Source of the DNA: Bacteroidales bacterium
Lineage (GTDB): Bacteria > Bacteroidota > Bacteroidia > Bacteroidales > UBA3824
Reading direction: 5' to 3'
Length of the DNA: 64,000 bases
Assembly (NCBI GenBank): GCA_017962175.1
Contig: JAGCVU010000003.1
Location: 21 to 64,020 of the forward strand
The notes under the pieces are model-generated. The model did no database searches, was not told the origin of the DNA, and saw only the letters and a list, made by a program, of their open reading frames with translations. A program made the translations under genes and the position numbers. Shown here one piece after another: positions 45,674 through 64,000 of this stretch (position 1 is the stretch's first letter; every line of letters begins with the position of its first letter).

Positions 45674-45719
45674 GTGGGTTAGGTTTTATTAGGTGTTACA
45701 ATATTTATATTATAAGGTG

Positions 45720-46664: not shown

Positions 46665-46810
46665 AATAATGTTTCTTTTTTTGGTTTTTATCACTAGTAA
46701 ATATTGGCGTAAAGGTACAAATAATAATTTATTGGCATACCTTAAAATAGTTTTTTTTTTGACATCGCTGCAAAAAATCGGCATTGTATTTGTTTTATTA
46801 AAAAAAACGC

Positions 46811-46818
46811 TAACTTTG
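46811..46818 (+). promoter_or_regulatory. -7 box TAACTTTG; implies a leader of about 155 nt for the sigma-factor gene
   Basis: Exact TAnnTTTG match. The next plus-strand CDS starts at 46981. Confidence 0.4.
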
Positions 46819-46980
46819 CGGCGTGGAAATCGCAAATGTTAATTTTTATCAAAAGTTGAAACATTGATGCGTATTTGCCGTAAAAGATAACATAAATTAC
46901 AAACAAAATAATGTTAAACTAAAATTTTAAGGAGGACTGCCTATCGGAACAACACTACTCAAACTATAAACTTTACAACA

Positions 46981-47571: not shown

Positions 47572-47616
47572 ATGATTATTGAAGATTTTTATTTTTGTTA
47601 ATTTTTTGAGGGTTAT

Positions 47617-47645
47617 AGCCGCGCTGAGAAGTGCGGCTTTTTTTT
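47617..47645 (+). terminator. Rho-independent terminator of the sigma-factor gene
   Basis: AGCCGC-GCTGAGAAGT-GCGGCT followed by T8. Confidence 0.75.
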
Positions 47646-47646
47646 G

Positions 47647-48303
47647 TTAGTTTAATTTGTCGGGGAAAACTGTTACCATAAAAATTACCGATGCACCAAA
47701 TAGCATAACACACACACCTGTAATTTTATTAATCCACATTATATGACGCGGACCTATTTTGTTGCGGAAAATATTTACCACCAATGCCAAAAATGCCCAC
47801 CAAAGCACAGCTCCGATGATAACACCGAGCAAGAGAAATGATGTTTCGAGCGGAGGAGTTTCGTTGCTAATGGCTCCCGATGCGGTAAACAATATACCAA
47901 AGGAAAGAATGGTTAACGGATTTGATATCGTGAGTCCAAAACTCGCTGCAAAATCGCCCAATACTCTGGCTTTTGATGTGGTATTATTTAGTTTTTTGTT
48001 CTCTTTCCACTGTTTTACAGGATTTTTTCTAAAAATATTGAACCCTAAAGCTAACATCAAAATGCCGCCGATAATGCCGATTACCATGCGGTGATTAACA
48101 AAAAAATCGGAGATAAACGAAAGACTGAATCCTGTTACCACAGCGTAGAAAAAGTCGCCAAACGCTGAGCCTACGCCCATAAGGAAACCTTGCCAAAAAC
48201 CTTTCTGAATAGTTTTCTGTACGCATAATATTGCAACTGCCCCTATGGGACAGGCGGCTAAAAAGCCAATGCTAATTCCTCGTGTAAATACTGTAGGATC
48301 CAA
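47647..48303 (-). CDS. LysE-family amino-acid exporter
   Basis: 218 aa with about six TM segments. The N-terminal GxxxGxxxAxPIGAV block is LysE/RhtB-like. Confidence 0.75.
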   Translation of the reverse strand: MDPTVFTRGISIGFLAACPIGAVAILCVQKTIQKGFWQGFLMGVGSAFGDFFYAVVTGFSLSFISDFFVNHRMVIGIIGGILMLALGFNIFRKNPVKQWKENKKLNNTTSKARVLGDFAASFGLTISNPLTILSFGILFTASGAISNETPPLETSFLLLGVIIGAVLWWAFLALVVNIFRNKIGPRHIMWINKITGVCVMLFGASVIFMVTVFPDKLN

Positions 48304-48393
48304 TTTCGTATTATTTTATTTCGGGCGTCAAATATAATGAACTATTGAATGTAGTAAAAATATATCGTGTTATTTTTTTCTAAATAATACAAG

Positions 48394-48423
48394 AAAACGG
48401 GCAGAAATATTTCCGCCCGTTTT
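48394..48423. terminator. terminator downstream of gldJ
   Basis: AAAACGGGC...GCCCGTTTT stem-loop, A-rich before and T-rich after. Confidence 0.65.
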
Positions 48424-48459
48424 CAACTGTCATTTTATTTATAAAACTTTTGCTGTTTT

Positions 48460-49995: not shown

Positions 49996-50025
49996 ATTAC
50001 AAGAGTTTTTTACTAAATTATACTA

Positions 50026-50033
50026 CAAATATA
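50026..50033 (-). promoter_or_regulatory. -7 box (TATATTTG on the minus strand) for gldJ
   Basis: The plus strand reads CAAATATA, about 31 nt upstream of the gldJ ATG. Confidence 0.45.
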
Positions 50034-50034
50034 A

Positions 50035-50994
50035 CTAAAATGCCGGACAAATTATTGTTTCACGCCGGTTATTTTTTTTGCCGTCGTTTAATTTGTATTT
50101 TACGGCTATCTCATGCGAGCCGTAAGTGCTTTTGGTTATGGCTGATAGGTCGAAATCGTGTCCGTATCCTATTTGTATATGCTTTATTGTGGTGCCTATT
50201 GTGGCAATTAATGTATGCTGTTTGTTGTCGTTGGTTTGTATTCGGTACGAAATACCTCCCATTACTGGTGTGTTGTCGATGTATACGCCTGCCTGAATGG
50301 TATTTATGTCGTTTTGTCGTCGATACATTAGGCTTGGAATAAGGCATGGTGTGCCGTCTTCTATTTTTTTAACACCTTTTACCAATGATATTTTATGGTT
50401 GGCAAATACCGTAAATACAGTAGGAACAACGTCGTCGCCCTCAATTTTGAATTTGGCAATATTAAATGCCGCTACGCCTACTGCAGTGTGCGGTGTGCAT
50501 AGAGCCAAAGCCGCTGATGCTGATGCTGTGCTCGGCGGTGTGTAATCTATTGAGGGTTGGTTGCTATTGACACTGCCGTTGAGCGGGTCGAGCATGCTGT
50601 AATATACGAGTTCGTTTTGCTTTAGGTTGCCGATGGAATATGAACCTTCGATGGCAGCACTGCATTTGAGGTTTCGGGCAATGGTAACGGCATTGGCGTA
50701 TGATGCCGAAAAATGATGACGCCGAAATGCTCCACCGGCTGTGCCGTATGCTCTAACTCCCACGCCGCAACGTCCGAGGTTTTGAAGATATGAGGCACAA
50801 TATGTTTTGTAGCCTCCGTCGGCTGTTGGAAATTGATGACGAAGTATCATTGATATTTCGCTATTGCTGGGAATAGCTGATAATGCAGGATTGAGCGACA
50901 ACTTGTCGGCATAATATTGCGAAAAATATATGCTTTGTGCATTGATTGTTAATACGGTAAAAATCAGCGCAATGGTAGTAATCAGTGTTTTCAT
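50035..50994 (-). CDS. PorP/SprF-family type IX secretion system membrane protein
   Basis: Signal peptide, then QSIYFSQYYADKLSLNPALSA (the family QY...NPA motif). Beta-barrel-like, and ends in an aromatic residue. Confidence 0.8.
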   Translation of the reverse strand: MKTLITTIALIFTVLTINAQSIYFSQYYADKLSLNPALSAIPSNSEISMILRHQFPTADGGYKTYCASYLQNLGRCGVGVRAYGTAGGAFRRHHFSASYANAVTIARNLKCSAAIEGSYSIGNLKQNELVYYSMLDPLNGSVNSNQPSIDYTPPSTASASAALALCTPHTAVGVAAFNIAKFKIEGDDVVPTVFTVFANHKISLVKGVKKIEDGTPCLIPSLMYRRQNDINTIQAGVYIDNTPVMGGISYRIQTNDNKQHTLIATIGTTIKHIQIGYGHDFDLSAITKSTYGSHEIAVKYKLNDGKKNNRRETIICPAF

Positions 50995-51003
50995 GTAGTC
51001 AGT

Positions 51004-51627
51004 TTATTGAGTAACGCTTGTTTCGGTGCAAAAATTATTTATGCCGAATTCTTTTGCTACAGCATCGAGTATTGATTGAAAAAACTGATTGAAATCGTTG
51101 CCTATTGCATCGTAGTTTTGATTGAGAGTGTCGATGGTTTCGTCTGTTTTGGCAGGAAACGATGTTTTGCCTTCCATTATCTTGAATGCAGCTGCTACAC
51201 CTTTTATATTATAGTAACTTTTTAGACGGTTGCTTATTATAAGGTGAGGAATCAACGGCTGAAGATTTTTGGGCAGTATATCGTAATACCTAATGCAACT
51301 GCTGTAAAAATTTTGTGCAAAAAGATCGAGATCTATTTTGGAATAATTATTCCAATCTTTTGCTAAAAAATGGTCGTAGATAACGTCAACAGCCACACCC
51401 GCATATTTTCCCAGCACGGGACGAAACAGCGCAATGCTTCTTGCGGCGATAGGATGGCTGTCGGTGTAGCTGTCGATAAAACGGTGCAACCTTATTCCCA
51501 GAGCCATTTCGGGTGGGTATTTGGCGTTTACCGATATCATGCTTCCCTTGACCCAGTCGCCAACAAAGTTGCCTACCTGAGTAAGCGCATTGCTGCCAGA
51601 TAAAAATATGTGGGCAAGAAAGTTCAT
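51004..51627 (-). CDS. acpH: acyl carrier protein phosphodiesterase
   Basis: MNFLAHIFLSG...VGNFVGDWVKG...HRFIDSYTDSH is the AcpH signature. Confidence 0.8.
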   Translation of the reverse strand: MNFLAHIFLSGSNALTQVGNFVGDWVKGSMISVNAKYPPEMALGIRLHRFIDSYTDSHPIAARSIALFRPVLGKYAGVAVDVIYDHFLAKDWNNYSKIDLDLFAQNFYSSCIRYYDILPKNLQPLIPHLIISNRLKSYYNIKGVAAAFKIMEGKTSFPAKTDETIDTLNQNYDAIGNDFNQFFQSILDAVAKEFGINNFCTETSVTQ

Positions 51628-51667
51628 TCAAAGGTCTGTTTTGGTTTATAACGTATAAATACAAAAT

Positions 51668-53041
51668 CTATTCCCTTCTTAATGCGTTGAGCGGGTCAAT
51701 TTTTGCTGCTTTGTGAGCCGGATAAATTGATGCCGCAATGGTGGTGCATACTGCAATGGCTATCGACAGGAGTGCTAATTGCCACGAAAATACGAAAAAG
51801 TCGTTTTGTGTGCTAATGATGTTTGCCAATTGGTTGCGTACCAGCGATGATGCTGATTTTGCCGCCCAATATCCTGCAAATGAGCCAAAAATACCTCCTA
51901 TGGCACCGGTGATAGACGATTCGATGTAAAAAATGAGTTTGATCTGCCATTGTGTAGCTCCGATGGCTTTCATTATGCCTATCTCTTTTCTTCGTTCGTA
52001 TATTGCCATGGTCATTGTGTTGATTATGCCAAATACCGAAACCATTATGGCTATTATGCCAATGGCGGCAAGAAGCATATCAATGAGCATAAATATTTTT
52101 TCGATGTCTTCGAGTTTGTCGCCTACCGAAAATACTACAAAGCCCATCTCCTCTATTTTGTTTTTTACTGTTTTTAACTCTTTGAAATTGTATACTTTAA
52201 CGTATACCGAGTTGTATTGGTAAAGGTCGTTGTCGATGCCGTGCGATATGTCGTAAATTAGTTTTACATCTACCGAAGGAATTCTTTCACAAGTGGTGGA
52301 AGGCAAGAAAAATCCGCCCGAGAGCATTCCGGCAGTGAGGGTATTGTTTTCGGTGATGCCCACTATTTGCAATATTGTGGTATCGTTTTTAACAGGTATT
52401 TCGGGTGTGTTGAGGTCCATTTTTGACGGGTCGAACACTTTGGTGACGATTTGGATGTTGTGATTGATGATAGAATCGGCAGGAAGGGTGATGCCTCCGC
52501 TTACTTTGCCAAAATCGCCGTCGCCCTCGATTTTTATTCCAAGTTTAAACAATGCCGACTTGCTAATCACTATGCTTTGTTCGTTGTCTTTGGTGTAAAA
52601 ATGTCCGTAAGCCATATTGTCAAACGGCTTGAATGTGCCCATCAGAGCGGGAACCGATTTCATATTGGCTTTGGTGCTGCGACCGTTGAATATTACTTCG
52701 GCGTATTTGATGATTTCCGGAAAAACTACTGTTACCTGAGGAATTTTTTCAAATTCTATCACAGCCGAGTCGTTGAGCGGAACAATTTGTTCATTGTAAA
52801 TGGCGTTGCCGAGCGAACCGTAGTTTGAATAGTCGGCATCGCGGCGGCTAACTGTCATGCCGGTAAATATGTCGTTGCTTACCAGCGTGTTTGAAATATT
52901 TTGGCTGATGCCTTGTCCTATCGACACCATTGAACTGAGCGAGCCTATGCCGATAGCCACTCCGATGATGGTTACAGCGGTTCGAAACTTGTTCTGGGTC
53001 ATATTGTTGACCGCGAGCGATATGATGTCTGAAAATTTCAT
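51668..53041 (-). CDS. ABC transporter permease, FtsX/MacB-LolC type
   Basis: 457 aa. Order: N-terminal TM segment, large periplasmic domain, then the C-terminal FtsX domain (RRKEIGIMKAIGAT...). Confidence 0.85.
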   Translation of the reverse strand: MKFSDIISLAVNNMTQNKFRTAVTIIGVAIGIGSLSSMVSIGQGISQNISNTLVSNDIFTGMTVSRRDADYSNYGSLGNAIYNEQIVPLNDSAVIEFEKIPQVTVVFPEIIKYAEVIFNGRSTKANMKSVPALMGTFKPFDNMAYGHFYTKDNEQSIVISKSALFKLGIKIEGDGDFGKVSGGITLPADSIINHNIQIVTKVFDPSKMDLNTPEIPVKNDTTILQIVGITENNTLTAGMLSGGFFLPSTTCERIPSVDVKLIYDISHGIDNDLYQYNSVYVKVYNFKELKTVKNKIEEMGFVVFSVGDKLEDIEKIFMLIDMLLAAIGIIAIMVSVFGIINTMTMAIYERRKEIGIMKAIGATQWQIKLIFYIESSITGAIGGIFGSFAGYWAAKSASSLVRNQLANIISTQNDFFVFSWQLALLSIAIAVCTTIAASIYPAHKAAKIDPLNALRRE

Positions 53042-53733
53042 TGTCGGACGTTTGTGGTGGTTTTGATAATTTCGCCGTCTGATAAGAGAATCGTTTTGTG
53101 CGATACTCTGTAAGCGGTTTCTTTGTCGTGAGTTACCATTACTATGGTGATATTGTGCTTGCTGTTAAACATCTGCAAAAGCGCCATAATGTCGGCAGAT
53201 GTGGACGTGTCAAGGTTGCCGGTGGGTTCGTCGGCAAGTATTATTTTGGGTTTGTTGGCAAGTGCGCGGGCTATTGCCACACGTTGAGCTTCGCCGCCCG
53301 AAAGTTCTGAAGGATAGTGCAATGCGCGTTTGTAAAGTCCCATGTTGTATAGTAGTTCGCAGGCACGAGTTTCACGAAGTCGTTTTGGATAACCGCTAAA
53401 CATGAGTGGCAGTTTTACATTGTCGATAGCTGTGCGCCACGGTATTAGGTTAAACGATTGAAATATCATACCTACAGTAAAAGTGCGGTAGCGAGCCAAG
53501 CGTCGTTCGTTCATTTTCAATATGTTGCTGCCTTCGAATAGCACTTCGCCATCGGCACACGTGTCCATTCCGCCCAAAATATTGAGCAGAGTGGATTTGC
53601 CAGATCCCGATTTGCCTACAATTGACACAAATTCGCCTTCTTCGATGTCGAAATTTATGTCGCGCAGTGCGAAAATTTTGTTCTCTCCTTTCTTGTAAGT
53701 TTTAGAAAGTTTTTCTATTTTTATTAGTACCAA
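53038..53733 (-). CDS. ABC transporter ATP-binding protein (LolD/MacB-type)
   Basis: Walker A GKSGSGKST, signature LSGGEAQRVAIARAL, Walker B ILADEPTGNLD. It overlaps the permease gene by 4 nt. Confidence 0.9.
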   Translation of the reverse strand: MVLIKIEKLSKTYKKGENKIFALRDINFDIEEGEFVSIVGKSGSGKSTLLNILGGMDTCADGEVLFEGSNILKMNERRLARYRTFTVGMIFQSFNLIPWRTAIDNVKLPLMFSGYPKRLRETRACELLYNMGLYKRALHYPSELSGGEAQRVAIARALANKPKIILADEPTGNLDTSTSADIMALLQMFNSKHNITIVMVTHDKETAYRVSHKTILLSDGEIIKTTTNVRQ

Positions 53734-53805
53734 TTTTTTTGCTATTTTTACACCGTAAAATTACGAAAATTTTGTAACTTGTGATGCAAAAAAATATTAA
53801 TTAAT

Positions 53806-54690
53806 ATGCAGTTTAAAGATTATTACAAAATATTGGAGGTAGACAAGAATGCTACTGCCGATCAAATAAAGAAAGCTTACCGCCGTTTGGCAATGACTTA
53901 TCACCCCGACCGTAATCCGGGAGATGCCTCTGCCGAAGAAAAATTTAAGGAGATCAACGAGGCTTATGATGTGCTGAGCGATGCCGAAAAGCGCAAAAAA
54001 TTTGACCTTATGGCGGATGGTAAGGAAAATACCGAGGACTTTTACACCCGTTCGTCGCAAAAAACAACTTCGCATACCGATGATAGTTGGTTTTCAAGAG
54101 CGTCGAAAGGTGGATATTCGGAATTTTTCAACAACTTTTTTCGCAACAGTTCATTTTTCAAGGGCGACAACTTTACGGGCAAAATCACAATTTCGCTCGA
54201 GGAGGCTTATAAAGGTTCTACGCGCATTATCAAGGTGCTCGGCAAAGAGTTGCGCATAAAAATTAAACCCGGTATTCAAGACGATACTTTGTTAAAAATT
54301 CCCGAACAAGGCTATCCCGGCGTGGCAGGCGGACGAAATGGCGACCTTTATGTGCGTGTGGGCGTTGACAATAAGAGTCCGCTATTTATTCGTCGCGGCG
54401 ATGAGTTGTTTTCGGAGGTTTATGTTGATATTTATACCGTTATGTTGGGTGGATATATTATGATTTCTACTTTTAGCGGTAATATCAAGATTGCCGTTCC
54501 CGCCGGAGTAGAATATGGCAAACAGTTGAGAATCAAAGGTAAAGGTATGCCTGTATACAATACTCCCGGAGCTTTTGGCGACCTTTTTGTGAAAATAAAA
54601 TACTCGCTGCCTAAAAATATTACCGACAAGGAGCGTGCTCTTATAGAGCAACTTCGCGAGATGCGTACTAATTATGTTAAAGGCAGTTGA
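53806..54690 (+). CDS. J-domain protein, CbpA-like (no zinc-finger domain)
   Basis: J domain DYYKILEVDKNATADQIKKAYRRLAMTYHPDRN plus DnaJ C-terminal domains. The CxxCxGxG repeats are absent. Confidence 0.85.
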   Translation: MQFKDYYKILEVDKNATADQIKKAYRRLAMTYHPDRNPGDASAEEKFKEINEAYDVLSDAEKRKKFDLMADGKENTEDFYTRSSQKTTSHTDDSWFSRASKGGYSEFFNNFFRNSSFFKGDNFTGKITISLEEAYKGSTRIIKVLGKELRIKIKPGIQDDTLLKIPEQGYPGVAGGRNGDLYVRVGVDNKSPLFIRRGDELFSEVYVDIYTVMLGGYIMISTFSGNIKIAVPAGVEYGKQLRIKGKGMPVYNTPGAFGDLFVKIKYSLPKNITDKERALIEQLREMRTNYVKGS

Positions 54691-54739
54691 TTTTAGATGC
54701 AAATGTGTATATTTGCAAAAATTTTTTTACGATACAACT

Positions 54740-55348
54740 ATGAAAAATATTAGAATTATAGCACTGCTGATATTGGCATTGTCGGCTCAGACAACGTTTG
54801 CGCAGTTTGAAGATTTTGAAGACGAGGAAAAATCAACCGTTAAGGTAAACACCGACGGCACTCGCAAAACCGACCGTTCTTTTATGGATAAATATGCCTT
54901 TGGCGGCAGTTTTGGCTTTGGTTTCTCGTCGCAATTTGGGTATATTGAACTTGTTCCGTTTTTCGGCTATCGATTTAATAATTATGTAACCGCCGGAGTA
55001 ACTGCTACTTATATGTACTCGTATTATAGCACAAGCTGGAGTTACGAAGCGTTTGACAGTTCGGTATATGGCGGAGGCGTTTTTACAGATGTTTATCCGT
55101 TTAAGTTTCTTGTAGTTCACGCCGAAGCACAAGTGCTCAATTTCGACAATATTTCCGATGGTTACACTCTTAACTTTGACAACGGTCGTGAATGGGACGT
55201 GCCTTTGATCGTAGGTTTGGGTTACCACCAAAGTTTCAACGAGCGTTGCGGCATCAACTATATGTTGTTGTTTAATATAAACGATTCCAATAAGTTGCGC
55301 TACAACGTTTACTCTAATCCTATCGTTAGGATTACCTTTGTATTTTAG
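54740..55348 (+). CDS. small outer-membrane beta-barrel protein (hypothetical)
   Basis: Signal peptide MKNIRIIALLILALSAQTTFAQ. Alternating aromatic/Gly strands and a C-terminal ...VRITFVF beta-signal. Confidence 0.55.
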   Translation: MKNIRIIALLILALSAQTTFAQFEDFEDEEKSTVKVNTDGTRKTDRSFMDKYAFGGSFGFGFSSQFGYIELVPFFGYRFNNYVTAGVTATYMYSYYSTSWSYEAFDSSVYGGGVFTDVYPFKFLVVHAEAQVLNFDNISDGYTLNFDNGREWDVPLIVGLGYHQSFNERCGINYMLLFNINDSNKLRYNVYSNPIVRITFVF

Positions 55349-57168
55349 AAGAATTCTACGTCGTTGTCGTCGTCGGTGCCTTCGGGTGTGAGTCCGTCGT
55401 TGAGGTCGGGTGTTTCCTCGTTGAGTGCCTGACGGTGTACAATGCGTTCTGTTTCCATAGTGTAACGGTCTTCGAGACTCTTGAGGTTTTCAGCCTTATT
55501 GTGACGTAGCACGTTGATAGTATCGCTGTCGAGTTTGGCGTATATGCTGTTGAGTTGAGTTACAATTTCGAGCATAATCTTTTCGAAGAAATCGTAGTAT
55601 TTAACCTGCTCAACCGACGACTTGATTTCGCTCGAGAGATTGAGACTGAGTTTTGAGTTTTCGATAAGTACGGTTTCGATTTTTTCGTTGTGCTCGGCTA
55701 TTGATTCGAGTATGCCTGCAATCTTAGCCGACAATTCTTTTAGATTGTCGTTGATTTGATTGCCGTCTTCCTCGTGATTGATTTCCTGAAGTTTTTTGCT
55801 GATGTTCTGAGCCTGACGGAAGAATAGTGTTACATCGTTGAGGTTTTCAGAGATGGTGTCGGTGAGTGATTTGATCTCCTCGATGATGCGGTTGATGCCG
55901 CGTTCGTCGTTTTGGTTGGTGAAATTGCCAAGTACCTCCTTGATTTTGCCTTCCAACGACACGTGAACGGTTTGAATTTCGTTTATTTTGTCGTTTTTCT
56001 CCTCGATGGTCTGGCTTATGGTGTTGATTTCGTTGCCAAAATCTTCGTTGGCTGCAATAAGGCGTTTAAGTACCGAAGTGGTGCCTTTAAGATGGTCTTC
56101 AACATCTTTGAAGTAGCAATCGGTGAGGTCGTTGTTGCCCACAAATTCGTTGCTGAGCTGCGAAATCACGCTCATATCTTCGCTGATATCCCAGAATTTG
56201 CGCATAATAACGGCAAATGCTTTTTGGTATTCTTTGTTGGTGTTGATAAGTTGTGCCACCTGAATACCAGCAATGTCGCGTATTTGTAGAAACTGTTGTG
56301 CCGATTCTGAAAGGTCCATTTTGCCGTCGCTTCCGGTTTTGATGTCCATAGCGGCAAGTTCCTTGATGATATTTTTGTGGGTAGCCTGCACGTGTTCCAT
56401 TTTTTGACGAATAATGTCGTGGTATTGCAGGTTGGTAATTATCTTGTTAACGCTGTCGAAATAGTTTTGAGTGCGTTTGGTGAGTTCGGGAAGTTTCTGT
56501 GCAGCAACAGCTTGCTTGTTTTTGAGCATAATAATGCTGTCGTTGATTTGTCCCGTTACTCGGTCGATGTCGAGAATATTTTTTTTGCGTATTTCGATTA
56601 ACTTGCCCGACGAAAGGCGCGTAACGTTTTTTACCATCAACATCGATTCTGAAATTTTGGGAAGAATAATTTTCAACTTGTTGATTTCGTCGGTGATGCT
56701 GTCGATAAGGTCACTCACTTTTTTGATGTTCTCGCTTTCGGAGTAAGCCACGTTGAGTTTGAGGTTTACAAGCAAGAAGTTGAGTGTAAGTATGTTGAGG
56801 TTGAAGTTCTTTAACGGCACAAACACAAGATTGAGCGCGGTGTGCATTTTTTCAAGTCCGCGTATGCTCTTTAAAATCTTGTTTTTGAGCATATTAATCT
56901 TGTTGTTGAGCGAATCTTGCAAGCCGAGCAACTCGTCGAAAAATTTTTCGTGAGCATCGCCGGCTATTATGTCGTATATTTGTTCGGTTTGACCCGAAAT
57001 TACTTTTGCGTCTTTGTAAAACTTTTTGAGATAGTTGTTGAGAGATAGAAAATCTTCGGCAGAACATTCGTTCAATGCAGTGATTTTTACGTCGATATCC
57101 GAAAATACCAGTATTATCTCCTTTATAGATTTTTGCGATTTTTCGTCGGTTATATTTTCCATTTGCAT
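55345..57168 (-). CDS. large coiled-coil hypothetical protein with a chemoreceptor-like LQYHDIIRQKMEHV motif and an acidic tail
   Basis: 607 aa ORF, highly helical and heptad-like, with no TM segment. The C-terminus reads PEGTDDDNDVEFF. Confidence 0.55.
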   Translation of the reverse strand: MQMENITDEKSQKSIKEIILVFSDIDVKITALNECSAEDFLSLNNYLKKFYKDAKVISGQTEQIYDIIAGDAHEKFFDELLGLQDSLNNKINMLKNKILKSIRGLEKMHTALNLVFVPLKNFNLNILTLNFLLVNLKLNVAYSESENIKKVSDLIDSITDEINKLKIILPKISESMLMVKNVTRLSSGKLIEIRKKNILDIDRVTGQINDSIIMLKNKQAVAAQKLPELTKRTQNYFDSVNKIITNLQYHDIIRQKMEHVQATHKNIIKELAAMDIKTGSDGKMDLSESAQQFLQIRDIAGIQVAQLINTNKEYQKAFAVIMRKFWDISEDMSVISQLSNEFVGNNDLTDCYFKDVEDHLKGTTSVLKRLIAANEDFGNEINTISQTIEEKNDKINEIQTVHVSLEGKIKEVLGNFTNQNDERGINRIIEEIKSLTDTISENLNDVTLFFRQAQNISKKLQEINHEEDGNQINDNLKELSAKIAGILESIAEHNEKIETVLIENSKLSLNLSSEIKSSVEQVKYYDFFEKIMLEIVTQLNSIYAKLDSDTINVLRHNKAENLKSLEDRYTMETERIVHRQALNEETPDLNDGLTPEGTDDDNDVEFF

Positions 57169-57260
57169 CGTTTTTTTAATTCATTTCTACAAATATACGG
57201 AAAAATTTACAAAGTGTATGCTTTTTTCCAAAATTTTTTAATGCAAAAAAAATACCAATC

Positions 57261-58202
57261 CTATTCTTGTTCCGCAGTGCTTTCTATAAGATAACTATTT
57301 CGATCTGACGATGAGCGTGCTACCAATTCGGCAGTAAAACCAGTTAAAAATAGCTGTGTGCCGAATATTATGGTCAAAAGTCCAAAGTAAAACAGCGGAC
57401 GGTCGGTCATTTGATATTGGTTCCACGCAAATTTTGCTATACTTAAATAGGTGAGAATGCCAAAGCCGATGAGGAAACTTAGTGAACCTAACAATCCAAA
57501 AAAGTGCATGGGACTTTTGCCAAATTTGCTTACTATGCTAACCGTTAATAAATCAAGATAACCGTTTACAAAGCGTTCAAGACCAAATTTTGTAACGCCG
57601 TATTTGCGTTTGCGGTGCTGAACCACTTTTTCGCCAATGCGACGGAAACCGGCTTGTTTTGCCAATACAGGTATGTAGCGGTGCATTTCGCCGTAAACTT
57701 CGATACTTTTTACCACGGTGTTGCGATAGGCTTTGAGTCCGCAGTTGAAGTCGTGAAGTTTGATGCCCGTAACCAAGCGTGCTGTAAAATTGAAAAATTT
57801 GCTCGGAACTGTCTTGCTGATAGGGTCGTAACGTTTTTTCTTCCAACCAGATACTACGTCAAATTTTTCTTCTTTTACCATGCGGTAGAGTTCGGGAATT
57901 TCGTCGGGACTATCTTGCATATCGGCGTCCATGGTTATTACCACATCGCCCTGAGCTTTTTTGAATCCTGTGTTGAGAGCGGCAGATTTGCCATAGTTGC
58001 GACGAAATTTTATGCCTTTTATATGACTGTCGGTAGAAGACATTTTCTCTATGATTTCCCACGAGGTATCGGTGCTGCCGTCGTCTACCATTATAACTTC
58101 GTAGCTAAAATTGTTTTCGTTCATTACGCGGGTAATCCACTCGCGGAGTTCGGGTAAAGATTCGTCTTCGTTGTATACGGGTACTATAACTGAAATGTCC
58201 AT
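57261..58202 (-). CDS. family 2 glycosyltransferase (polyprenyl-phosphate glycosyltransferase, GtrB/DPM1-like)
   Basis: VIVPVYNE...IMVDDGSTD...TMDADMQD, with two C-terminal TM segments. Confidence 0.9.
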   Translation of the reverse strand: MDISVIVPVYNEDESLPELREWITRVMNENNFSYEVIMVDDGSTDTSWEIIEKMSSTDSHIKGIKFRRNYGKSAALNTGFKKAQGDVVITMDADMQDSPDEIPELYRMVKEEKFDVVSGWKKKRYDPISKTVPSKFFNFTARLVTGIKLHDFNCGLKAYRNTVVKSIEVYGEMHRYIPVLAKQAGFRRIGEKVVQHRKRKYGVTKFGLERFVNGYLDLLTVSIVSKFGKSPMHFFGLLGSLSFLIGFGILTYLSIAKFAWNQYQMTDRPLFYFGLLTIIFGTQLFLTGFTAELVARSSSDRNSYLIESTAEQE

Positions 58203-58208
58203 TTTAAG

Positions 58209-58721
58209 TTACTTCTTTTGAAATTGTGAAATCCAAGCGCTGAATAGTGAAAACAGCGCGATAATAAACAAGTTGTATGTAAAATACGAGATTATCGTGA
58301 TAGGAATTTTTAATGCTTCAATGATACCAGCTGCATTTTGTAAGTCTTGCTCAGAAAAGGCTTTCATCTGTTTCATCATCTCCATCGACTGTTCTGTGAT
58401 AGTGTCTAAGGCGCTTGTATGAACAAATTTGAGGTCAACAACCAAATAGAGTGATGCAATTATTGTTGCACCAATGCCACACACTATGCCGTATAATGTA
58501 AGTTGCATAAACGGAGTAGGGTCAGGTTTCCTGAATGCCGACCATACTTTTTGACCAAAAAGGATTCCTGACGACAAGGCTATGTATACTATTATTCCCC
58601 CGAATGATATTTGTTTGGTAATCAGTTCGGTAATGAACATAGCTAATGTCATTCCAATTCCAGTGTATGCGCCGTAGGTAAGTGCGTGACGGAGAAAGTC
58701 TATTTTTGCCGGTTTCTGCAT
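58209..58721 (-). CDS. DUF4199-like membrane protein
   Basis: 170 aa with four TM segments. It is the conserved Bacteroidota partner immediately upstream of the GT2 gene. Confidence 0.65.
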   Translation of the reverse strand: MQKPAKIDFLRHALTYGAYTGIGMTLAMFITELITKQISFGGIIVYIALSSGILFGQKVWSAFRKPDPTPFMQLTLYGIVCGIGATIIASLYLVVDLKFVHTSALDTITEQSMEMMKQMKAFSEQDLQNAAGIIEALKIPITIISYFTYNLFIIALFSLFSAWISQFQKK

Positions 58722-58809
58722 TATGTTTTGAATGTTTCAGTGCGCAAAATTATAAAAATATCGAAAAATATCACTATCTTTACACCGAAATAACCAACAT
58801 AAGCAAATT

Positions 58810-59334
58810 ATGGCAAAATTGTTAAAATATATTCCGTCGCTCTTGTCGGTATTGGCTGTGGTAGCCATTGTGTTGCCCACCGGTTGCGGATTTATGGGCG
58901 CGGGTAGGAGTGGACAAATGAAGGATTCGCTCCAAAATGATAGTGCGGCTCGAGCACAAAAATTGTTAGAAATAGATACTTGTACAGCATATTTCCGCCG
59001 TCATACGTGGGCAGACAAAAAACACAATATCACTTTTGACCGTATTGAAATTCTCTCGGATAGTGCAGCTATTGAATATGCCGCCACTCGACACGGTTTT
59101 GAGGGGCGTAAGCATATCATTATAAATTTGGAACCTACCACAGCCACAATGGCGGTGACTGATACTACAGAAATATGGATTGTAAACCCTGCTTTTAGAT
59201 CAGGCAAGTCAAAAACCCATTATATTCAAGGTAAAGTGGGCGATGTGTCTGATTTTGAGTATAATACCATTATCAAACTTGCCACACAGGGTAAAATAAT
59301 TCTTTATCTTCAACAACTCGATATTGAACTATGA
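58810..59334 (+). CDS. hypothetical lipoprotein
   Basis: Signal peptide and lipobox (LPTGCGF). No further motif recognised. Confidence 0.5.
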   Translation: MAKLLKYIPSLLSVLAVVAIVLPTGCGFMGAGRSGQMKDSLQNDSAARAQKLLEIDTCTAYFRRHTWADKKHNITFDRIEILSDSAAIEYAATRHGFEGRKHIIINLEPTTATMAVTDTTEIWIVNPAFRSGKSKTHYIQGKVGDVSDFEYNTIIKLATQGKIILYLQQLDIEL

Positions 59335-61128
59335 AACCGCTCCTACGCTGTAAATATCATCGATAAGAGCGGCGTATTTTTCGGTAACGGCTTTGCGTTT
59401 AAGTTTTTGGGTTTGAGATAGTTCGCCGGTTTCTGCACTCCAAACATCGGGTACAAGACGATAACGCTTAACCTCTTCGTGCTTGCCGTTGAGTTTGTTG
59501 ATGCGTTTTACCTCGCTGTCGATAAGGGCAACAACTGTGGGGTTGGAGATTATCTCTTCGTTTGAAGCGAATTTTACGCCCGACTGAGCCATATAAGCCG
59601 CAAGTTCCTCAAAATTAGGCGAAATCACTGCGCTTGCAAATTTTTGGTTTTCGCCCACAATCATTATTTGCGAAATGTATTTTGATTCTTTAAACTTGCC
59701 TTCAAGCATTTGAGGAGCAATATATTTGCCGCCTGAGGTTTTGAAAACGTCTTTTTTGCGGTCGGTGATGTGGAGGCAGTTGCCCGCCGAAATGTAGCCG
59801 ATGTCGCCGGTGCGGAAATATCCGTCTTCGGTAAACACTTGTGCGGTGAGTTCGGGGTTTTTGTAATAGCCTTTCATCACGTTGGGACCCTTTACAAGTA
59901 TCTCGCCGTCCTCGTCGGTCTTAACATCCTCGTTGCTTACGATAGGACCAACCGATGTGAACTTGTGTCCGCCTTTACCGGGAACAGAGTGCGCAATAAT
60001 GGGCGATGTTTCGGTAAGTCCGTATCCCTCTTGCACTTTGATGCCCGCAGCCCAAAGCAGACGGCTGAGCGAGATAGGTAATGCAGCACCGCCGCAGCCA
60101 AAGAATTTCATCTCGCCACCAAAATAGTATTTGCGCCAACGACGATAGACAAACGCATCGTAAACACGGTTCATTATGTTGTAAATTAAACCGTTAGCGT
60201 TGTAGTGCTCAAAACGGTAGCCGGCTTCTACTGCGCGGTCGAACATTTTTTTGCGCCATCCTGTAAGTTTTGCGCCCTCTTTCATAATGTTCTCGATAAT
60301 CTTTTCGGCAATACGCGGAACGGTGTTGCAACCGTTGGCGTGAATGTCGCAAATGTCGCGGACAATAGTTCCGAGGTTTTGCGCATAGTAGATTCCTATG
60401 CCGTTGTATTGGTACATATAGCAGAAACAGCGTTCGTAAACGTGGCAGAGGGGCAAAATCGAGATGATTTTGTCTTTGCCCTGCTCCAAAGCGCCGATAA
60501 CGTTGCTTGCTGCGGTAAAGTTGCTTACAAAATTCTTGTGGGTGAGCATCACGCCTTTTGAAAGTCCTGTTGTGCCTGATGTGTAGATGATTGACACCAC
60601 GTCGTCTTCGTTGACCGATGCTTTGATGTTTTCAAGTTCTTTTTGGTAATAAACCTTGCTTTTTTCGCCGAGAGCCAAAACTGTTTCCATATTCTCAACG
60701 CCTTCGACATCGGTAAATGAAAACACCTTTTCTATTGTTTTGATTTTTGGAACAACCGACGACATACGACGGTAAGCCGAAGCGTCTGCCACAAACACCA
60801 TTTTGCACTCGCAGTGGTTGAAGATATATTCGTAATCATCGGCACCAATGGTTGGATATACAGGCACGTGAATAGCACCAGTTTGCGCAATTGCCATATC
60901 TACAAAGTTCCACTCGGGACGGTTGTTGGATACTGTAACCACAGTGTCGCCTTTTTTGATGCCGAGAGCCAACAGACCGTAACTCAATAGGTTAACCTTA
61001 TTGCGATAATCGTTGTAACTATATGTGCGCCATCCGTTGCCCGAAACTTTGCAGGCAAGAGCGTCGTTGCGATTGTATTTTTCGCAGCAATAGTCCAAAA
61101 TGTCGAATATTCTTTTTACGTCTGTCAT
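59329..61128 (-). CDS. long-chain-fatty-acid--CoA ligase (AMP-dependent synthetase)
   Basis: AMP-binding motif IIYTSGTTGLSKGVMLTHKN, plus GYGLTETS and TGDIG...DRKKD. Confidence 0.9.
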   Translation of the reverse strand: MTDVKRIFDILDYCCEKYNRNDALACKVSGNGWRTYSYNDYRNKVNLLSYGLLALGIKKGDTVVTVSNNRPEWNFVDMAIAQTGAIHVPVYPTIGADDYEYIFNHCECKMVFVADASAYRRMSSVVPKIKTIEKVFSFTDVEGVENMETVLALGEKSKVYYQKELENIKASVNEDDVVSIIYTSGTTGLSKGVMLTHKNFVSNFTAASNVIGALEQGKDKIISILPLCHVYERCFCYMYQYNGIGIYYAQNLGTIVRDICDIHANGCNTVPRIAEKIIENIMKEGAKLTGWRKKMFDRAVEAGYRFEHYNANGLIYNIMNRVYDAFVYRRWRKYYFGGEMKFFGCGGAALPISLSRLLWAAGIKVQEGYGLTETSPIIAHSVPGKGGHKFTSVGPIVSNEDVKTDEDGEILVKGPNVMKGYYKNPELTAQVFTEDGYFRTGDIGYISAGNCLHITDRKKDVFKTSGGKYIAPQMLEGKFKESKYISQIMIVGENQKFASAVISPNFEELAAYMAQSGVKFASNEEIISNPTVVALIDSEVKRINKLNGKHEEVKRYRLVPDVWSAETGELSQTQKLKRKAVTEKYAALIDDIYSVGAVS

Positions 61129-61193
61129 GGTTTATTACTTTTTATAATTTTAGTTTTTGAAAAATCACTCGGTCGATTTTTTTTATTACGCTG

Positions 61194-61201
61194 CAAAGGT
61201 A
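61194..61201 (-). promoter_or_regulatory. -7 box (TACCTTTG on the minus strand) for the acyl-CoA ligase gene
   Basis: The plus strand reads CAAAGGTA, about 66 nt upstream of the ATG at 61128. Confidence 0.45.
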
Positions 61202-61441
61202 TTATTATTTTTCGAATTTGAAAAATATTTATTTCAAAAATTTTTCTTTAATTTATGTTAAATATTTTATTATTAGTTATTTATCTTGGTGTAAAATTAT
61301 AAAGATTTTTAGAATATTAATTTTCTGCAAACAAAAGTCGAAATTTTTTAACGTACTATTTTGGACTTCAAAAATCTTTCGGTCGAAAAAATCGGAGTGT
61401 AAAATCCTATGCAAAATGTTTTTTTATACAAAAAAATACGA

Positions 61442-61449
61442 TATTTTTG
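61442..61449 (+). promoter_or_regulatory. -7 box TATTTTTG for argR
   Basis: 29 nt upstream of the trimmed argR ATG. Confidence 0.5.
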
Positions 61450-61477
61450 CAGTCGAAAGTGCATAAATATACACCTT

Positions 61478-61948
61478 ATGAACAGCAAGCAAAACCGCAT
61501 ATCTATTATTAGTCAGATAATTGAGAGCGAAACAGTGCGCTCTCAAAACGACATAATCGATCGCCTTCGCGAACGTGGTATAACCCTTACACAAGCAAGC
61601 CTAAGTCGCTATCTCAAAGAGATTCAAGCCTCGCGCATACCCGACGGCAACAACGGATATATTTATAAAATTCCGCCCGAAACCGCCAAATCAACCGCCG
61701 TGCTCAGCAACGAAGTGGTTTCGGTAGAGTTTTCGGGTAACAATATGGCAGTGTTGAAAACCATTTCGGGTTATGCCAACGCTGTTTCGGCGCAAATAGA
61801 TGCCAAAATGCTTCCTCCCATTGCCGGCACCATCTCTGGCGATGATACTATCCTTATCATCATCCGCGACGGGTTTTCAAAACGTCAGGTTAAGGAATAT
61901 TTGGTAAAGGAATTTCAGTATATCAAGAATAAGTTTTTGAATGAATAG
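61478..61948 (+). CDS. argR: arginine repressor
   Basis: Winged-helix N-domain (QNDIIDRLRERGITLTQASLSRYLKEI) and C-terminal oligomerisation/arginine-binding domain (GTISGDDTILIIIRD). The start was trimmed to MNSKQNRISI. Confidence 0.85.
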   Translation: MNSKQNRISIISQIIESETVRSQNDIIDRLRERGITLTQASLSRYLKEIQASRIPDGNNGYIYKIPPETAKSTAVLSNEVVSVEFSGNNMAVLKTISGYANAVSAQIDAKMLPPIAGTISGDDTILIIIRDGFSKRQVKEYLVKEFQYIKNKFLNE

Positions 61949-61976
61949 GAGCGAGGTAATCCTCTCTCCCGTTTTG

Positions 61977-62010
61977 ATCATACATATATATAATGTGTAT
62001 GATTTTTTTT
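61977..62010 (+). terminator. Rho-independent terminator of argR
   Basis: ATCATACA...TGTATGAT stem followed by T8. Confidence 0.7.
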
Positions 62011-62101
62011 GCTTCTTACTTTATTTGTTAATAAATGTTAAAACCTACTTTTTGGTAGAAAAATCTTTTAAAATAATTTGGATAGTATACTTTTTAGTTG
62101 T

Positions 62102-62109
62102 TATCTTTG
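62102..62109 (+). promoter_or_regulatory. -7 box TATCTTTG upstream of the toxin-like gene (about 115-nt structured leader)
   Basis: Exact TAnnTTTG match. The leader contains the 8-bp hairpin GTCAAAAG/CTTTTGAC (62114-62141). Confidence 0.45.
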
Positions 62110-62231
62110 CACCGTCAAAAGAAATGAAACCGACTTTTGACAGAGGTTCTTTGATGGATGGTTTTATGAGTATTGGTTTGAGTTAACAATTTGCCAAAAG
62201 GCGATATTGCCTTAATTAAAACCTTAAAGAT

Positions 62232-62582
62232 ATGAATAAAATCATTTTACAGGACTTTTTGTCCTACGTAGTTACTAACCTTAACGGTGTTTTTGTTGTT
62301 CCCCGTTCACACTCGTTTGACCCGGAAGACAGACACAAAGACCCGAAGGCAGTTTGCGCAAGGCACGAACTCGGAGAGGTAAGGAAGGTAGTAAAAACAG
62401 TTGTAAGGTCTTTGACCGTTGGCGACTTTGTTACTATCCAACCCGACTTGAAGAACAACCTCGGCGACCTTTACGTTTTTCGCAAAAGGTTCAAAGGGGT
62501 GATGCTTTACGTAAAACTTCAAATTAGTACACGAACCGGACAGGTTATCTGCCACTCGTTTCACGAGTGGACCAACAGGTAA
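62232..62582 (+). CDS. MqsR-like toxin (putative ribosome-independent mRNA interferase)
   Basis: The C-terminal half aligns by eye with E. coli MqsR. VVRSLTVGDFVTIQ matches VIIGLSESDFYKSM, LGDLYVFRKRFKGVMLYVKLQI matches WQDVYRPRLVTGQVYLKITV, and VICHSFHEW matches LIVSFKEK. The toxin gene precedes its partner, as in mqsRA. Confidence 0.5.
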   Translation: MNKIILQDFLSYVVTNLNGVFVVPRSHSFDPEDRHKDPKAVCARHELGEVRKVVKTVVRSLTVGDFVTIQPDLKNNLGDLYVFRKRFKGVMLYVKLQISTRTGQVICHSFHEWTNR

Positions 62583-62596
62583 CCGAGCAGGTTTCA

Positions 62597-62629
62597 GGAG
62601 CGGTTATAGAAAACCGCTCCATTTTTTTT
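62597..62629 (+). terminator. strong intrinsic terminator between the toxin-like and antitoxin-like genes
   Basis: GGAGCGGTT-ATAGAA-AACCGCTCC forms a perfect 9-bp stem followed by A-T8. Confidence 0.7.
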
Positions 62630-62650
62630 AACTTTTTAAAACTAACAAAA

Positions 62651-63613
62651 ATGGAAAGCCCGTTTACCGGCGGAAAAGCCGAGTTGGTAATCTCAAAAGA
62701 GGTTTTTGAGTACCGCAAAGAAAAATTCACTTACTACAACATTCAGTACAAGTGTGTGGATACAGGCGAGTTTTTTGCCCCGTTAGAAATCGAAAACTCC
62801 AACCTTTTGCAGGTGTACAACCAATACCGCGCTCTGCACGGTATTCCCTTCCCCGACGAAATTACCGCAATTAGAAAACGTTACGGACTTTCGCGCCCTC
62901 AGATGTCAAAAATCCTTGGTTTTGGCGAGCATCAACTTAAACGCTACGAAGACGACGGCGAAGTGCCGAGCGAAAGCAACGGAAAAACCCTTTCGGCTAT
63001 CAAAAACCCGAAAGTTTTTGAAGTCTACTTGCTCAACGCTAAAAACCAACTTACTACCAAAGAGTTTGATAATATTCTATCAAACCTCAAACACGTAACC
63101 AATTACGATACTACTATATATAAAAGTGTTGTCCGCAGCAAGCAAAACGGCTTGGGCGAACTTAATGCCCAAAAGGCTGTGCAAGCGGCTGAGTATGTTA
63201 TCGACCGTGGACAATCGGTATCTGCCCAAAAACTCAATGCCACGCTTTTGTATGCCGATATGCTTGCCTACGCTGTTAGCGCCAAGTCGATTACGGGGTT
63301 GCTCTATCAAAAAAATGTCCGCAACAATATCGACCCTCACAACTTTTTTGACTTTTACAGAGCCATTCCCGAAGTTGATTTTGCCTTAGACAGCAACGGC
63401 AGAATTACCCTCTCGCTCAATTCTATCCAAATATTTTTTGAGGAACTCACCAAAAAAGAGACTGAAATTTTGGATTATGTGCTATCCATCTTTAACGATA
63501 TGGACGAAACCGCAATTTCTGAAAAAATCAAAAACGATTTTGCCAATATCAAGCCTGATAATTTCGACTTTGATATTGCTTTTTCGCTTGACTTAGTAAA
63601 AAACTTTTTGTAA
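62651..63613 (+). CDS. MqsA-like HTH (XRE) protein with a degenerate zinc ribbon and an approximately 200-aa C-terminal extension (possibly Panacea/DUF4065-like)
   Basis: The N-terminal 120 aa are collinear with MqsA. SPFTGGKAEL matches CPVCHQGEMV, YKCVDTGEFF matches YCVHCEESI, and IRKRYGLSRPQMSKILGFGEHQLKRYEDDGEVPS matches VRKKLSLTQKEAAEIFGGGVNAFSRYEKGNAQPH. The C-terminal KLNATLLYADMLAYAVSAKSITGLLYQK resembles the KLQKLLYYA...ITG..Y block of DUF4065. The start was set at MESPF (62651). Confidence 0.5.
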   Translation: MESPFTGGKAELVISKEVFEYRKEKFTYYNIQYKCVDTGEFFAPLEIENSNLLQVYNQYRALHGIPFPDEITAIRKRYGLSRPQMSKILGFGEHQLKRYEDDGEVPSESNGKTLSAIKNPKVFEVYLLNAKNQLTTKEFDNILSNLKHVTNYDTTIYKSVVRSKQNGLGELNAQKAVQAAEYVIDRGQSVSAQKLNATLLYADMLAYAVSAKSITGLLYQKNVRNNIDPHNFFDFYRAIPEVDFALDSNGRITLSLNSIQIFFEELTKKETEILDYVLSIFNDMDETAISEKIKNDFANIKPDNFDFDIAFSLDLVKNFL

Positions 63614-63643
63614 ATTTGAAAACAACATTAAAACTAAACTATT

Positions 63644-64000
63644 ATGGCAGATTTCATTTTCGACAACATTGATGCAGACAAAAGCAGACGCTACATTTAC
63701 GGTACTTATATCGAAATGGCGTTTCATAATTTTTTCATCACCCTCCAACATATTTATAAATGTGTCAAAGGTGTTTATCCTCCTCTTCAAGACGAAGATT
63801 TTGGCAAAGACGAAAACACCGAGTTTATCTTCGATGATTTTAAACAGGCCGAAGAAAAAGAACGTCTTAAATTGCTGTTGAATAAGCACTTCCCCTTTTT
63901 AAGAGTAATTGAAGACGATTTTAACGAATCCAACAAAATAGACATTATCAAAAAGTTTTTGGAGTTCTTAAAAGTGCTTCGCAATGCGGCTGAGCACGAT
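63644..64000 (+). CDS. cas13b: Cas13b-like (type VI-B CRISPR effector) N-terminal fragment; the ORF continues beyond the window
   Basis: Absent from the ORF track because there is no stop in the window. It has 119 codons from ATG 63644: MADFIFDNIDADKSRRYIYGTYIEMAFHNFFITLQHIYK...LLLNKHFPFLRVIEDD...FLEFLKVLRNAAEHD. The block order YGxYxxMAxxN / HFPFL / RNxxxH (R113, H118) matches remembered Cas13b N-termini and the Bergeyella HEPN1 pair R116/H121. Confidence 0.65.
   Translation, partial: MADFIFDNIDADKSRRYIYGTYIEMAFHNFFITLQHIYKCVKGVYPPLQDEDFGKDENTEFIFDDFKQAEEKERLKLLLNKHFPFLRVIEDDFNESNKIDIIKKFLEFLKVLRNAAEHD

Follow-up and report, generated by a model that had tools for sequence, protein, structure and literature searches.

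An MqsR:PanA-Type Toxin–Antitoxin Pair Linked to Type VI-B CRISPR-Cas13b Loci

Layout of the Locus

The stretch of DNA analyzed here (the window) comprises 64,000 nucleotides (nt) of contig JAGCVU010000003.1 from the Bacteroidales bacterium assembly GCA_017962175.1 and carries, near its end, two small genes that directly precede cas13b. These two genes form a type II toxin–antitoxin (TA) module of the published MqsR:PanA kind, and the toxin clade to which they belong adjoins cas13b, an array of 36-nt CRISPR repeats, or both, in every contig whose flanks can be read. The three genes are the following.

62232–62582, + strand: MqsR-fold toxin gene, with conserved KDPKAVC, GDLYVFRK, LYVKLQ and SFHEW motifs
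62651–63613, + strand: PanA-type antitoxin gene, encoding a zinc-less MqsA-like beta head (about residues 1–45), an XRE helix-turn-helix (HTH, about residues 65–130) and a divergent Panacea domain (about residues 170–320)
63644–64000, + strand: 5′ end of cas13b, which encodes 1029 amino acids (aa) in the identical locus L001; beyond the window lies an 18-repeat CRISPR array with a 36-nt repeat

The toxin open reading frame (ORF) encodes a 116-aa protein (P0001) and the antitoxin ORF, read in the same direction, a 320-aa protein (P0003). The GTG start at 62567 that was listed for the antitoxin was dropped in favor of ATG 62651, because homologue alignments start at or upstream of the conserved (M)xSPFTGG motif. 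The cas13b ORF starts with ATG 63644, 30 nt after the antitoxin stop codon, and is cut by the window edge. A first-pass annotation of the sequence had described an mqsRA-like module with the toxin gene first, 30 nt from a Cas13b-like ORF, and both ORFs and the gap are indeed as it gave them. In contigs identical or near-identical to the window the gene order is argR, toxin, antitoxin, cas13b, array, a ParE-like pair and argH. An 81-aa ORF in the argR–toxin interval (61941–62186) is probably no gene, being AT-rich, hydrophobic and uncalled in related loci, and it lies mostly 5′ of the RNA contigs described below, which start at about 62126.

The Cas13b assignment of the truncated ORF follows from its full-length copy in L001, a protein that scores 411.6 bits on NF038190 (cut-off 150) and contains the HEPN motifs RNAAEH and RNCFAH. 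The array in L001 consists of 18 repeats of 36 nt (GTTGTGGAAACCTGCGTTTTGGTAGGGAATTACAAC) separated by spacers of 29–30 nt, and no cas1, cas2, csx27 or csx28 was found in the 16-kb locus. Judged by these sequence features, the locus downstream of the pair classifies as type VI-B CRISPR-Cas. Neither protein of the pair matches Csx27 or Csx28 in Pfam, NCBIfam or PADLOC.

Several variants of this arrangement were seen. In the L007 lineage, cas13b (L007:11410–14319) has an in-frame TAG at codon 580, which is Ser in the window protein; the codon was read directly in L007–L009, three independent assemblies, and L010 has the same split gene call. This TAG marks either a recent pseudogene or read-through. 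At L012:10306–10513 the array after cas13b is down to one repeat, directly followed by the ParE-like pair. In L001 that second pair (15383–15966) encodes proteins of 91 and 103 aa with a weak ParE_toxin match and lies between the array and argH, so that the Cas13b locus has TA modules at both flanks. In the window, TAAATTTG at 63611–63618 spans the antitoxin stop codon, fits the pattern TAnnTTTG and lies 25 nt before the cas13b ATG; from its sequence, this box may be a separate cas13b promoter.

The Toxin Has an MqsR Fold

P0001 matches PF15723 (MqsR_toxin) with an E value of 9e-4 and 20.0 bits, under the curated gathering score of 26.2, and its close relatives are few (10 clusters at 55–92% identity, all unannotated). 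A profile made from these relatives retrieved 53 proteins from 1.8 billion representatives. Among 46 scanned family members, comprising P0001, the phage copy P0134 and 44 of the 53 profile matches, 36 match PF15723 at E ≤ 0.01, the best at 6.5e-10. The AlphaFold2 model of the toxin, calculated from an 11-sequence alignment, has a predicted local distance difference test (pLDDT) score of 89.5 and a predicted template modeling (pTM) score of 0.82, and its top match in the PDB is E. coli MqsR (3hi2_B: probability 1.00, TM score 0.70, root-mean-square deviation 2.9 Å), with RelE and YoeB ranking far below. A search of the PDB by sequence gave no match with the toxin clade profile and, with the wider-family profile, MqsR at an E value of 0.39 only.

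When E. coli MqsR is aligned by profile, the Tyr in its VYLK motif falls on Y93 of LYVKL and its Lys96 (SFKEK) on His111 of SFHEW. Y93 is invariant within the toxin clade but for one divergent variant. The Ser-Phe-His motif is unchanged across the entire wider toxin family (about 46 relatives), and the change from Lys to His is therefore a family trait and no peculiarity of the window gene. A C-terminal His is a usual catalytic residue of RNases of the RelE superfamily. On the strength of the model, the 116-aa protein is a predicted MqsR/RelE-fold endoribonuclease, with Tyr93, Lys95 and His111 as candidate catalytic residues.

One lineage stands out in its toxin. Those of L030 (381–740) and L034 (7289–7645) are just 46% identical though the antitoxins of these two loci are 93% identical, and the L030 toxin has Leu instead of the catalytic Tyr (LLVKIQ). 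The toxin of the L030 lineage looks replaced or decaying.

The Antitoxin Combines a Zinc-Less MqsA Head with a Remodeled Panacea Domain

P0003 scores 53.4 bits on the NCBIfam model TIGR03830 (MqsA; cut-off 61.8), 19.2 bits on the Pfam MqsA model PF15731 (cut-off 30) and 22 bits on PF13274 (Panacea; cut-off 25.7), and its match to HTH_19 is likewise under the cut-off. Its homologues are more telling: more than 350 are full-length, the majority with a significant PF13274 match and many with PF15731 too, and some are annotated as "SocA domain-containing antitoxin" or "DUF4065". Because full-length homologues at 39–41% identity score 70–75 bits on Panacea (two were scored), the Panacea homology of P0003 holds by transitivity. 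The antitoxin model reaches a pLDDT of 92.3 and a pTM of 0.90. The top Foldseek match is full-length E. coli MqsA (3gn5_A, E value 8e-5, probability 1.00), followed by 3ga8 (MqsA head), 3fmy (MqsA HTH) and the HTH domains of HigA2; for the C-terminal domain, the PDB fold search returned no solved structure.

Just Cys35 of the four MqsA zinc ligands is kept (S3-P-F-T6, C35-V-D-T38). Cys35 is also the only one of these cysteines conserved in 48 of 48 aligned antitoxin homologues, and the zinc site is therefore gone in all 48. The LNATLLYADMLAY...ITGLLYQK block falls inside the Panacea-homologous domain.

The Panacea half of the antitoxin is where the Cas13b-linked proteins depart from their family. 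We compared alignment columns at least 85% conserved in 40 generic members with the same columns in 8 Cas13b-linked antitoxins, which keep 86% of them in the half containing the zinc-binding domain (ZBD) and the HTH and just 41% in the Panacea half. T193, K197, G211, A221, P226, H294, E296 and W299 occur in 100% of the generic members (V227 in 97%), and all are replaced or deleted in 8 of 8 linked antitoxins. The family-conserved Panacea residues tested (TK.NK, YGPVP and SH.E..W) are thus not kept. Since the fold is still predicted with high confidence, the Panacea domain of the linked clade is remodeled, not lost; as modeled, the linked antitoxins represent a natural Panacea variant with hallmark residues replaced and the fold kept.

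With respect to the first-pass annotation, the MqsR-like toxin and the MqsA-like antitoxin with a Panacea extension are borne out by the fold matches to 3hi2_B and 3gn5_A together with the profile matches. The annotation had called for profile searches with MqsR, MqsA and Panacea, and these returned matches for all three, each of them under its curated cut-off; the AlphaFold check that it proposed for the single proteins gave two confident models with MqsR and MqsA as top PDB matches. The residues it had singled out (loss of three of the four zinc cysteines, the Tyr of LYVKL, SFHEW and the ITGLLYQK block) are all present, and the Cas13b-like nature of the downstream ORF is confirmed by the full-length copy. 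Two of its points are not supported. It took the architecture to be atypical, while ZBD-HTH-Panacea antitoxins with MqsR toxins have been published and tested (PMC10440598), and it took the zinc-less head and the SFH motif to be departures, while these are common to the 48 aligned antitoxins and the roughly 46 toxin relatives, respectively.

The Pair Is Linked to Type VI-B Loci in Different Gene Orders

To assess linkage we gathered every reachable locus encoding a toxin relative, from genome contigs, metagenome contigs and exact-match contig look-ups, and scanned these loci for Cas13b and for VI-B repeats. The toxin clade spans 40–100% identity, and each of its informative members abuts a cas13b gene or a VI-B array, which gives real comparative support to the association of pair and type VI-B effector proposed in the first-pass annotation. 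Uninformative contigs, in which the relevant side is too short, are L013 and L027 (both ending within the antitoxin gene), L024, L026, L028 and L031; the genomic contexts of P0010, P0012 and P0088 are not part of the count. The longest contig listed for P0088 measures 13,037 nt, as does that for the Cas13b P0237, and the two may thus belong to a further linked locus.

Four arrangements were found. The order TA–cas13b–CRISPR occurs in the window, L001–L012, L022 and L025, and wherever the toxin is at least 81% identical, the run of toxin, antitoxin, cas13b and array sits between argR and argH. L029 (toxin 64% and antitoxin 59% identical) has the order TA–CRISPR, with an array of window-type repeats within 80 nt after the pair. 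The order cas13b–CRISPR–TA is found in L023 and L034–L036. In L023 (toxin 56% and antitoxin 40% identical) a Cas13b of 1064 aa, 30% identical to the window type, is followed by an 11-repeat array, the repeat of which differs from the window-type repeat, and then by the pair; in L034–L036 the order is dnaX, a Cas13b of 1071 aa (71% identical to that of L023), 2 to 27 repeats, toxin, antitoxin and a DUF3791 gene. L022, which is of the window type, and L023 are two such loci in one metagenome-assembled genome of a yak-rumen Bacteroidales. Finally, the contigs of L030, L032, L033 and L037 start inside an array and continue with the pair (CRISPR–TA). Altogether at least five flanking contexts are represented: argR/argH, cobW-rluD-like, a SufB-like gene, dnaX/DUF3791 and an AAA-ATPase.

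Outside the clade, the generic MqsR:PanA pair of L018 sits in the tail region of a prophage, its two genes 4 nt apart, and the generic family member of L014 is a solo antitoxin beside a GAPS4-type system; neither has an adjacent cas13b. No relatives of the toxin clade were found in IMG/VR viral contigs.

A tree built on the ZBD-HTH region unites the 12 Cas13b-linked antitoxins in a single clade (SH-aLRT, an approximate likelihood ratio test, 99), which splits deeply into two subclades, one for each gene order. A tree of 45 Cas13b sequences joins the two linked groups as sisters (SH-aLRT 99) and separates them from 34 other Cas13b, with the caveat, raised by a tool warning, that long branches meet at the sister node. 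The simplest history that these sequences suggest comprises one capture, then long co-inheritance during which the locus was rearranged once and relocated several times, and at least one loss. Sequence comparison thus shows the pair to have been inherited within the type VI-B locus since before the two Cas13b groups split to about 30% identity, and such persistent adjacency argues for selection on the linkage and is no proof of it.

The Toxin Gene Yields a Discrete, Abundant Transcript

The interval upstream of the toxin gene and that between the two genes contain further conserved features.

62077–62109, + strand: toxin promoter of the Bacteroidota type, with −33 TTTG at 62077–62080 and −7 TATCTTTG at 62102–62109
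62114–62141, + strand: inverted repeat GTCAAAAG-N12-CTTTTGAC, at or just after the transcription start
62126–62645, + strand: monocistronic toxin transcript of about 500 nt, with a leader of about 105 nt, the toxin ORF and a 3′ end at the terminator
62597–62629, + strand: intrinsic terminator between toxin and antitoxin genes, with a 9-bp GC-rich stem (62597–62620) followed by T8

RNA evidence came from contigs assembled from public rumen metatranscriptomes, eight runs on the window (cattle and sheep, several studies) and four on L023. The only RNA contigs on window positions 61900–64000, from the eight runs, extend from about 62126 to 62590–62645. They begin at 62126–62128, 17–19 nt past the −7 box. 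The depth of this toxin piece was 133, 39, 13.5 and 46 in four runs in which positions 44001–64000 were covered, other pieces of the same organism reaching at most 12, and it amounts to several hundred in other runs. For L023, from the other subclade, the contigs of the four further runs lie only on 5942–6431, from about 110 nt before the toxin ATG to just past its stop codon, and leave out the array, the antitoxin gene and cas13b. In both subclades the contig ends match promoter and terminator, which points to a toxin mRNA that is discrete, abundant and monocistronic. Antitoxin and cas13b RNA is too rare to assemble.

The elements that delimit this transcript are conserved. In 9 of 9 lineage representatives the toxin ATG is preceded, at a similar distance, by a TAnnTTTG box, which counts as a promoter from what is established about promoters in Bacteroides. 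The toxin–antitoxin spacer measures 60–85 nt in every clade locus, and a GC-rich hairpin with a T-run is present in it in 11 of 11 clade loci (−16 to −24 kcal/mol); the stems are unrelated in sequence between lineages, covary and occupy the same position. The T-run is separated from the antitoxin ATG by 21 nt, in which no promoter motif was seen, and judging from this arrangement antitoxin expression probably depends on terminator read-through.

Conservation extends to the leader. The pairing of the inverted repeat is kept with changed letters in other lineages (seven of nine pairs vary, three of them changed on both sides), and in the second subclade this position is occupied by another inverted repeat. 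As far as the sequence can tell, GTCAAAAG-N12-CTTTTGAC could be either an operator for the HTH antitoxin or a 5′-terminal RNA hairpin. A small covarying hairpin about 15 nt before the toxin ATG is found in all lineages. The leader motif AGAGGTTCTTTGA (window 62150–62165) is kept in sequence across both deep subclades, while the neighboring hairpins covary instead, and the stretch from the toxin stop codon to the terminator contains another conserved motif, AAGG(T/A)T(T/G)TCAG. No Rfam family matched in the leader or terminator region.

Two further ideas about the transcript were discarded. A 20-codon upstream ORF in the leader was rejected, its ATG being unconserved in L029 and in the second subclade, as was self-immunity of the toxin mRNA by way of a missing cleavage motif: every trinucleotide is present in it, and the depleted tetramers are only palindromic ones, as is typical of restriction avoidance.

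Relation to Known Systems

The MqsR:PanA system of B. fungorum has been dissected by Ernits et al. (2023, PNAS, PMC10440598). Its antitoxin has the order ZBD-HTH-Panacea; the ZBD by itself neutralizes the toxin and Panacea by itself does not, Tyr97 of the toxin is essential, and Panacea was proposed to act as a sensor. Like MqsR(D2):PanA of Bacillus fungorum and Lactobacillus rossiae, the window pair has the toxin gene first, an MqsR fold with the Tyr kept, and an antitoxin composed of an MqsA-type head, an HTH and Panacea. In contrast, its antitoxin head lacks three of four zinc ligands, the Panacea hallmark residues are replaced, and the pair is split by a terminator and embedded in type VI-B loci. 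Compared to E. coli MqsR/MqsA (3HI2, 3GN5), the best structural match of both proteins, the toxin-first order and the Tyr of (V/L)Y(L/V)K are shared, whereas the window proteins are just about 19–23% identical, have His111 for Lys96 and no zinc site, and carry an extra C-terminal domain of 190 aa. In E. coli, the mqsR and mqsA genes are adjacent, with no terminator between them. Thus, the TA type is already known, and what is new is its CRISPR linkage, its split transcript and its remodeled sensor domain. The first-pass annotation of the pair did not mention the terminator, the abundant toxin-only RNA or the replaced Panacea hallmark residues. A separately terminated toxin message that stands far above the antitoxin message in vivo is unusual for type II systems.

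The experimentally characterized Cas13b accessories that our literature search turned up are Csx27 and Csx28 (Smargon et al. 2017; VanderWal et al. 2023, as cited in PMC12669027), and the 2025 classification mentions further Cas13b-associated genes besides these. The pair resembles them in consisting of small genes that are facultative but recurrent beside cas13b in particular Cas13b lineages. There is no sequence relation, and Csx27 and Csx28 are membrane proteins, whereas the pair would comprise a soluble RNase and a DNA-binding antitoxin. A second comparison is offered by Cas13a, activation of which in E. coli indirectly switches on chromosomal type II TA RNases (Sci Adv 2024, PMC11042736). 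Collateral activity of Cas13 can thus free TA RNases as a back-up layer; the E. coli TA loci are unlinked host genes, whereas the window TA is physically part of the CRISPR locus. The CreTA RNA toxin–antitoxin pairs, which safeguard type I CRISPR-Cas (Li et al. 2021, as cited in PMC13187072), are likewise embedded in a CRISPR-cas locus and could hinder its loss. They are RNA-based and need the effector with a crRNA-like guide (modeled on CRISPR RNA), whereas both window partners are proteins and no complementarity was found. Our literature search found no paper tying MqsR, PanA or any protein TA to Cas13b loci, in agreement with the statement of the first-pass annotation that the pairing is not known to have been described for Cas13b.

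Proposed Function and Alternatives

By analogy with B. fungorum, the zinc-less MqsA-like head would bind and neutralize the toxin, autoregulation would come from binding of the HTH dimer to the inverted repeat at the promoter of the toxin gene, and the Panacea-derived C-terminal domain would serve as a sensor or adaptor. An antitoxin made solely by terminator read-through would need continual resynthesis. When Cas13b is active, its collateral RNase would halt translation and the antitoxin would run out, and deletion of the locus would likewise exhaust it. Stockpiled toxin, or stockpiled toxin mRNA, would then impose a second, Cas13b-independent arrest by RNA cleavage. On this basis it appears plausible that the pair is functionally tied to Cas13b, whether in backing up dormancy or in stabilizing the locus, and to the combined reading, a module that would both back up dormancy and stabilize the cas13b-CRISPR locus, we give even chances. 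A conserved RNase TA embedded in the locus would bring a different accessory logic, that of a second RNase layer or an addiction device, and would provide a natural system for the long-standing idea that CRISPR immunity is coupled to toxin-driven dormancy.

Several observations weigh against this combined reading. We infer the toxicity of the toxin, its neutralization by the antitoxin and the cross-talk of the pair with Cas13b. The RNA contigs show presence and never absence and do not give the true toxin:antitoxin RNA ratio, and taken at face value a simple stoichiometric TA would hardly account for abundant toxin message with scarce antitoxin, unless the two differed strongly in translation rate or protein stability. 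Because the linkage has a single origin, the loci are no independent events, and co-inheritance by itself could give the linkage pattern. Furthermore, a Cas13b 53% identical to that of the window, with an identical 36-nt repeat, has no such pair within 7 kb, and the pair is therefore dispensable; this one related Cas13b is also what qualifies the co-occurrence check suggested by the first-pass annotation, which otherwise returned adjacency in all informative contigs among the reachable loci. Toxin, antitoxin and a 22-repeat array are intact beside the TAG-bearing cas13b, and a ParE-like second TA flanks the same array, as in an ordinary defense island. These last points, together with the single origin of the linked antitoxin clade and the sister relation of the Cas13b clades, are equally what one would expect of a passive neighbor: an ordinary selfish or phage-defense MqsR:PanA cassette that landed once by an ancestral cas13b-CRISPR and moved along in a compact islet without any interaction, in which case the pair would represent a new but ordinary branch of a TA type already published. 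Such passive carriage has to contend with an adjacency that outlasted divergence to about 30% identity in Cas13b, about 38–40% in the antitoxin and about 56–59% in the toxin, as well as a switch in gene order and moves into at least five genomic contexts. Moreover, no clade member was seen apart from a VI-B locus in the informative contigs, and the clade has derived traits that generic members lack, namely the terminator and the remodeled Panacea domain. We consider passive carriage possible but rather unlikely.

The pair might instead mainly regulate the CRISPR locus: the HTH antitoxin, joined by the toxin as co- or antirepressor, would control cas13b and/or the array, and toxin promoter activity and terminator efficiency would set the Cas13b level. 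This would make use of the 30-nt gap between antitoxin and cas13b, which has no terminator and so would allow co-transcription by read-through, would fit the toxin-promoter inverted repeat that differs between the two antitoxin subclades, and has an analogy in MqsA, a DNA-binding autoregulator (PMC10440598). We hold it to be improbable, as the pairs of the other subclade lie downstream of cas13b and the array, where read-through cannot drive these, as the TAAATTTG box at the antitoxin stop codon could be cas13b's own promoter, and as the inverted repeat of the toxin promoter was not seen again in the vicinity of cas13b or the array. Less credible still, and in our view very improbable, is an addiction scheme like CreTA, in which Cas13b with a crRNA-like guide would bind and silence the abundant toxin mRNA so that loss of Cas13b frees the toxin. 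The high level of a toxin mRNA with a conserved structured leader, the strict adjacency to the array and the precedent of CreTA in type I systems (again as cited in PMC13187072) would suit it. Spacers and array-flanking units of nine loci are complementary to the toxin transcript over at most 8–11 nt, which is chance level, and such a guide was rejected because no spacer is complementary to the toxin mRNA; in addition, a protein antitoxin exists and is conserved, and a cas13b interrupted by a stop codon still has an intact TA next to it.

The reading of the module as dormancy back-up and locus stabilizer can be taken a step further. In a sub-lineage of type VI-B systems the pair may constitute a third kind of accessory beside Csx27 and Csx28. 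It would consist of an MqsR-type RNase dedicated to the system and kept in check by an antitoxin derived from PanA, the remodeled Panacea domain of which would sense Cas13b activity, cleavage products or Cas13b itself. Target recognition would then free the RNase, translated from a stockpiled, unusually stable and separately terminated toxin mRNA. Dormancy would in this way be robust against anti-Cas13 measures and the locus hard to delete. We put this forward tentatively, as a proposal that may well prove incorrect.

A Cas13b relative in L038, a locus that uses the identical window-type 36-nt repeat and has no MqsR:PanA pair, is itself unusual. At L038:7001–10798 a protein of 1265 aa is encoded, against which residues 1–225 of the window Cas13b match twice in tandem, so that from sequence its N-terminus looks to be duplicated. 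Its gene sits between the end of a Mu-like prophage and a cas6b gene.

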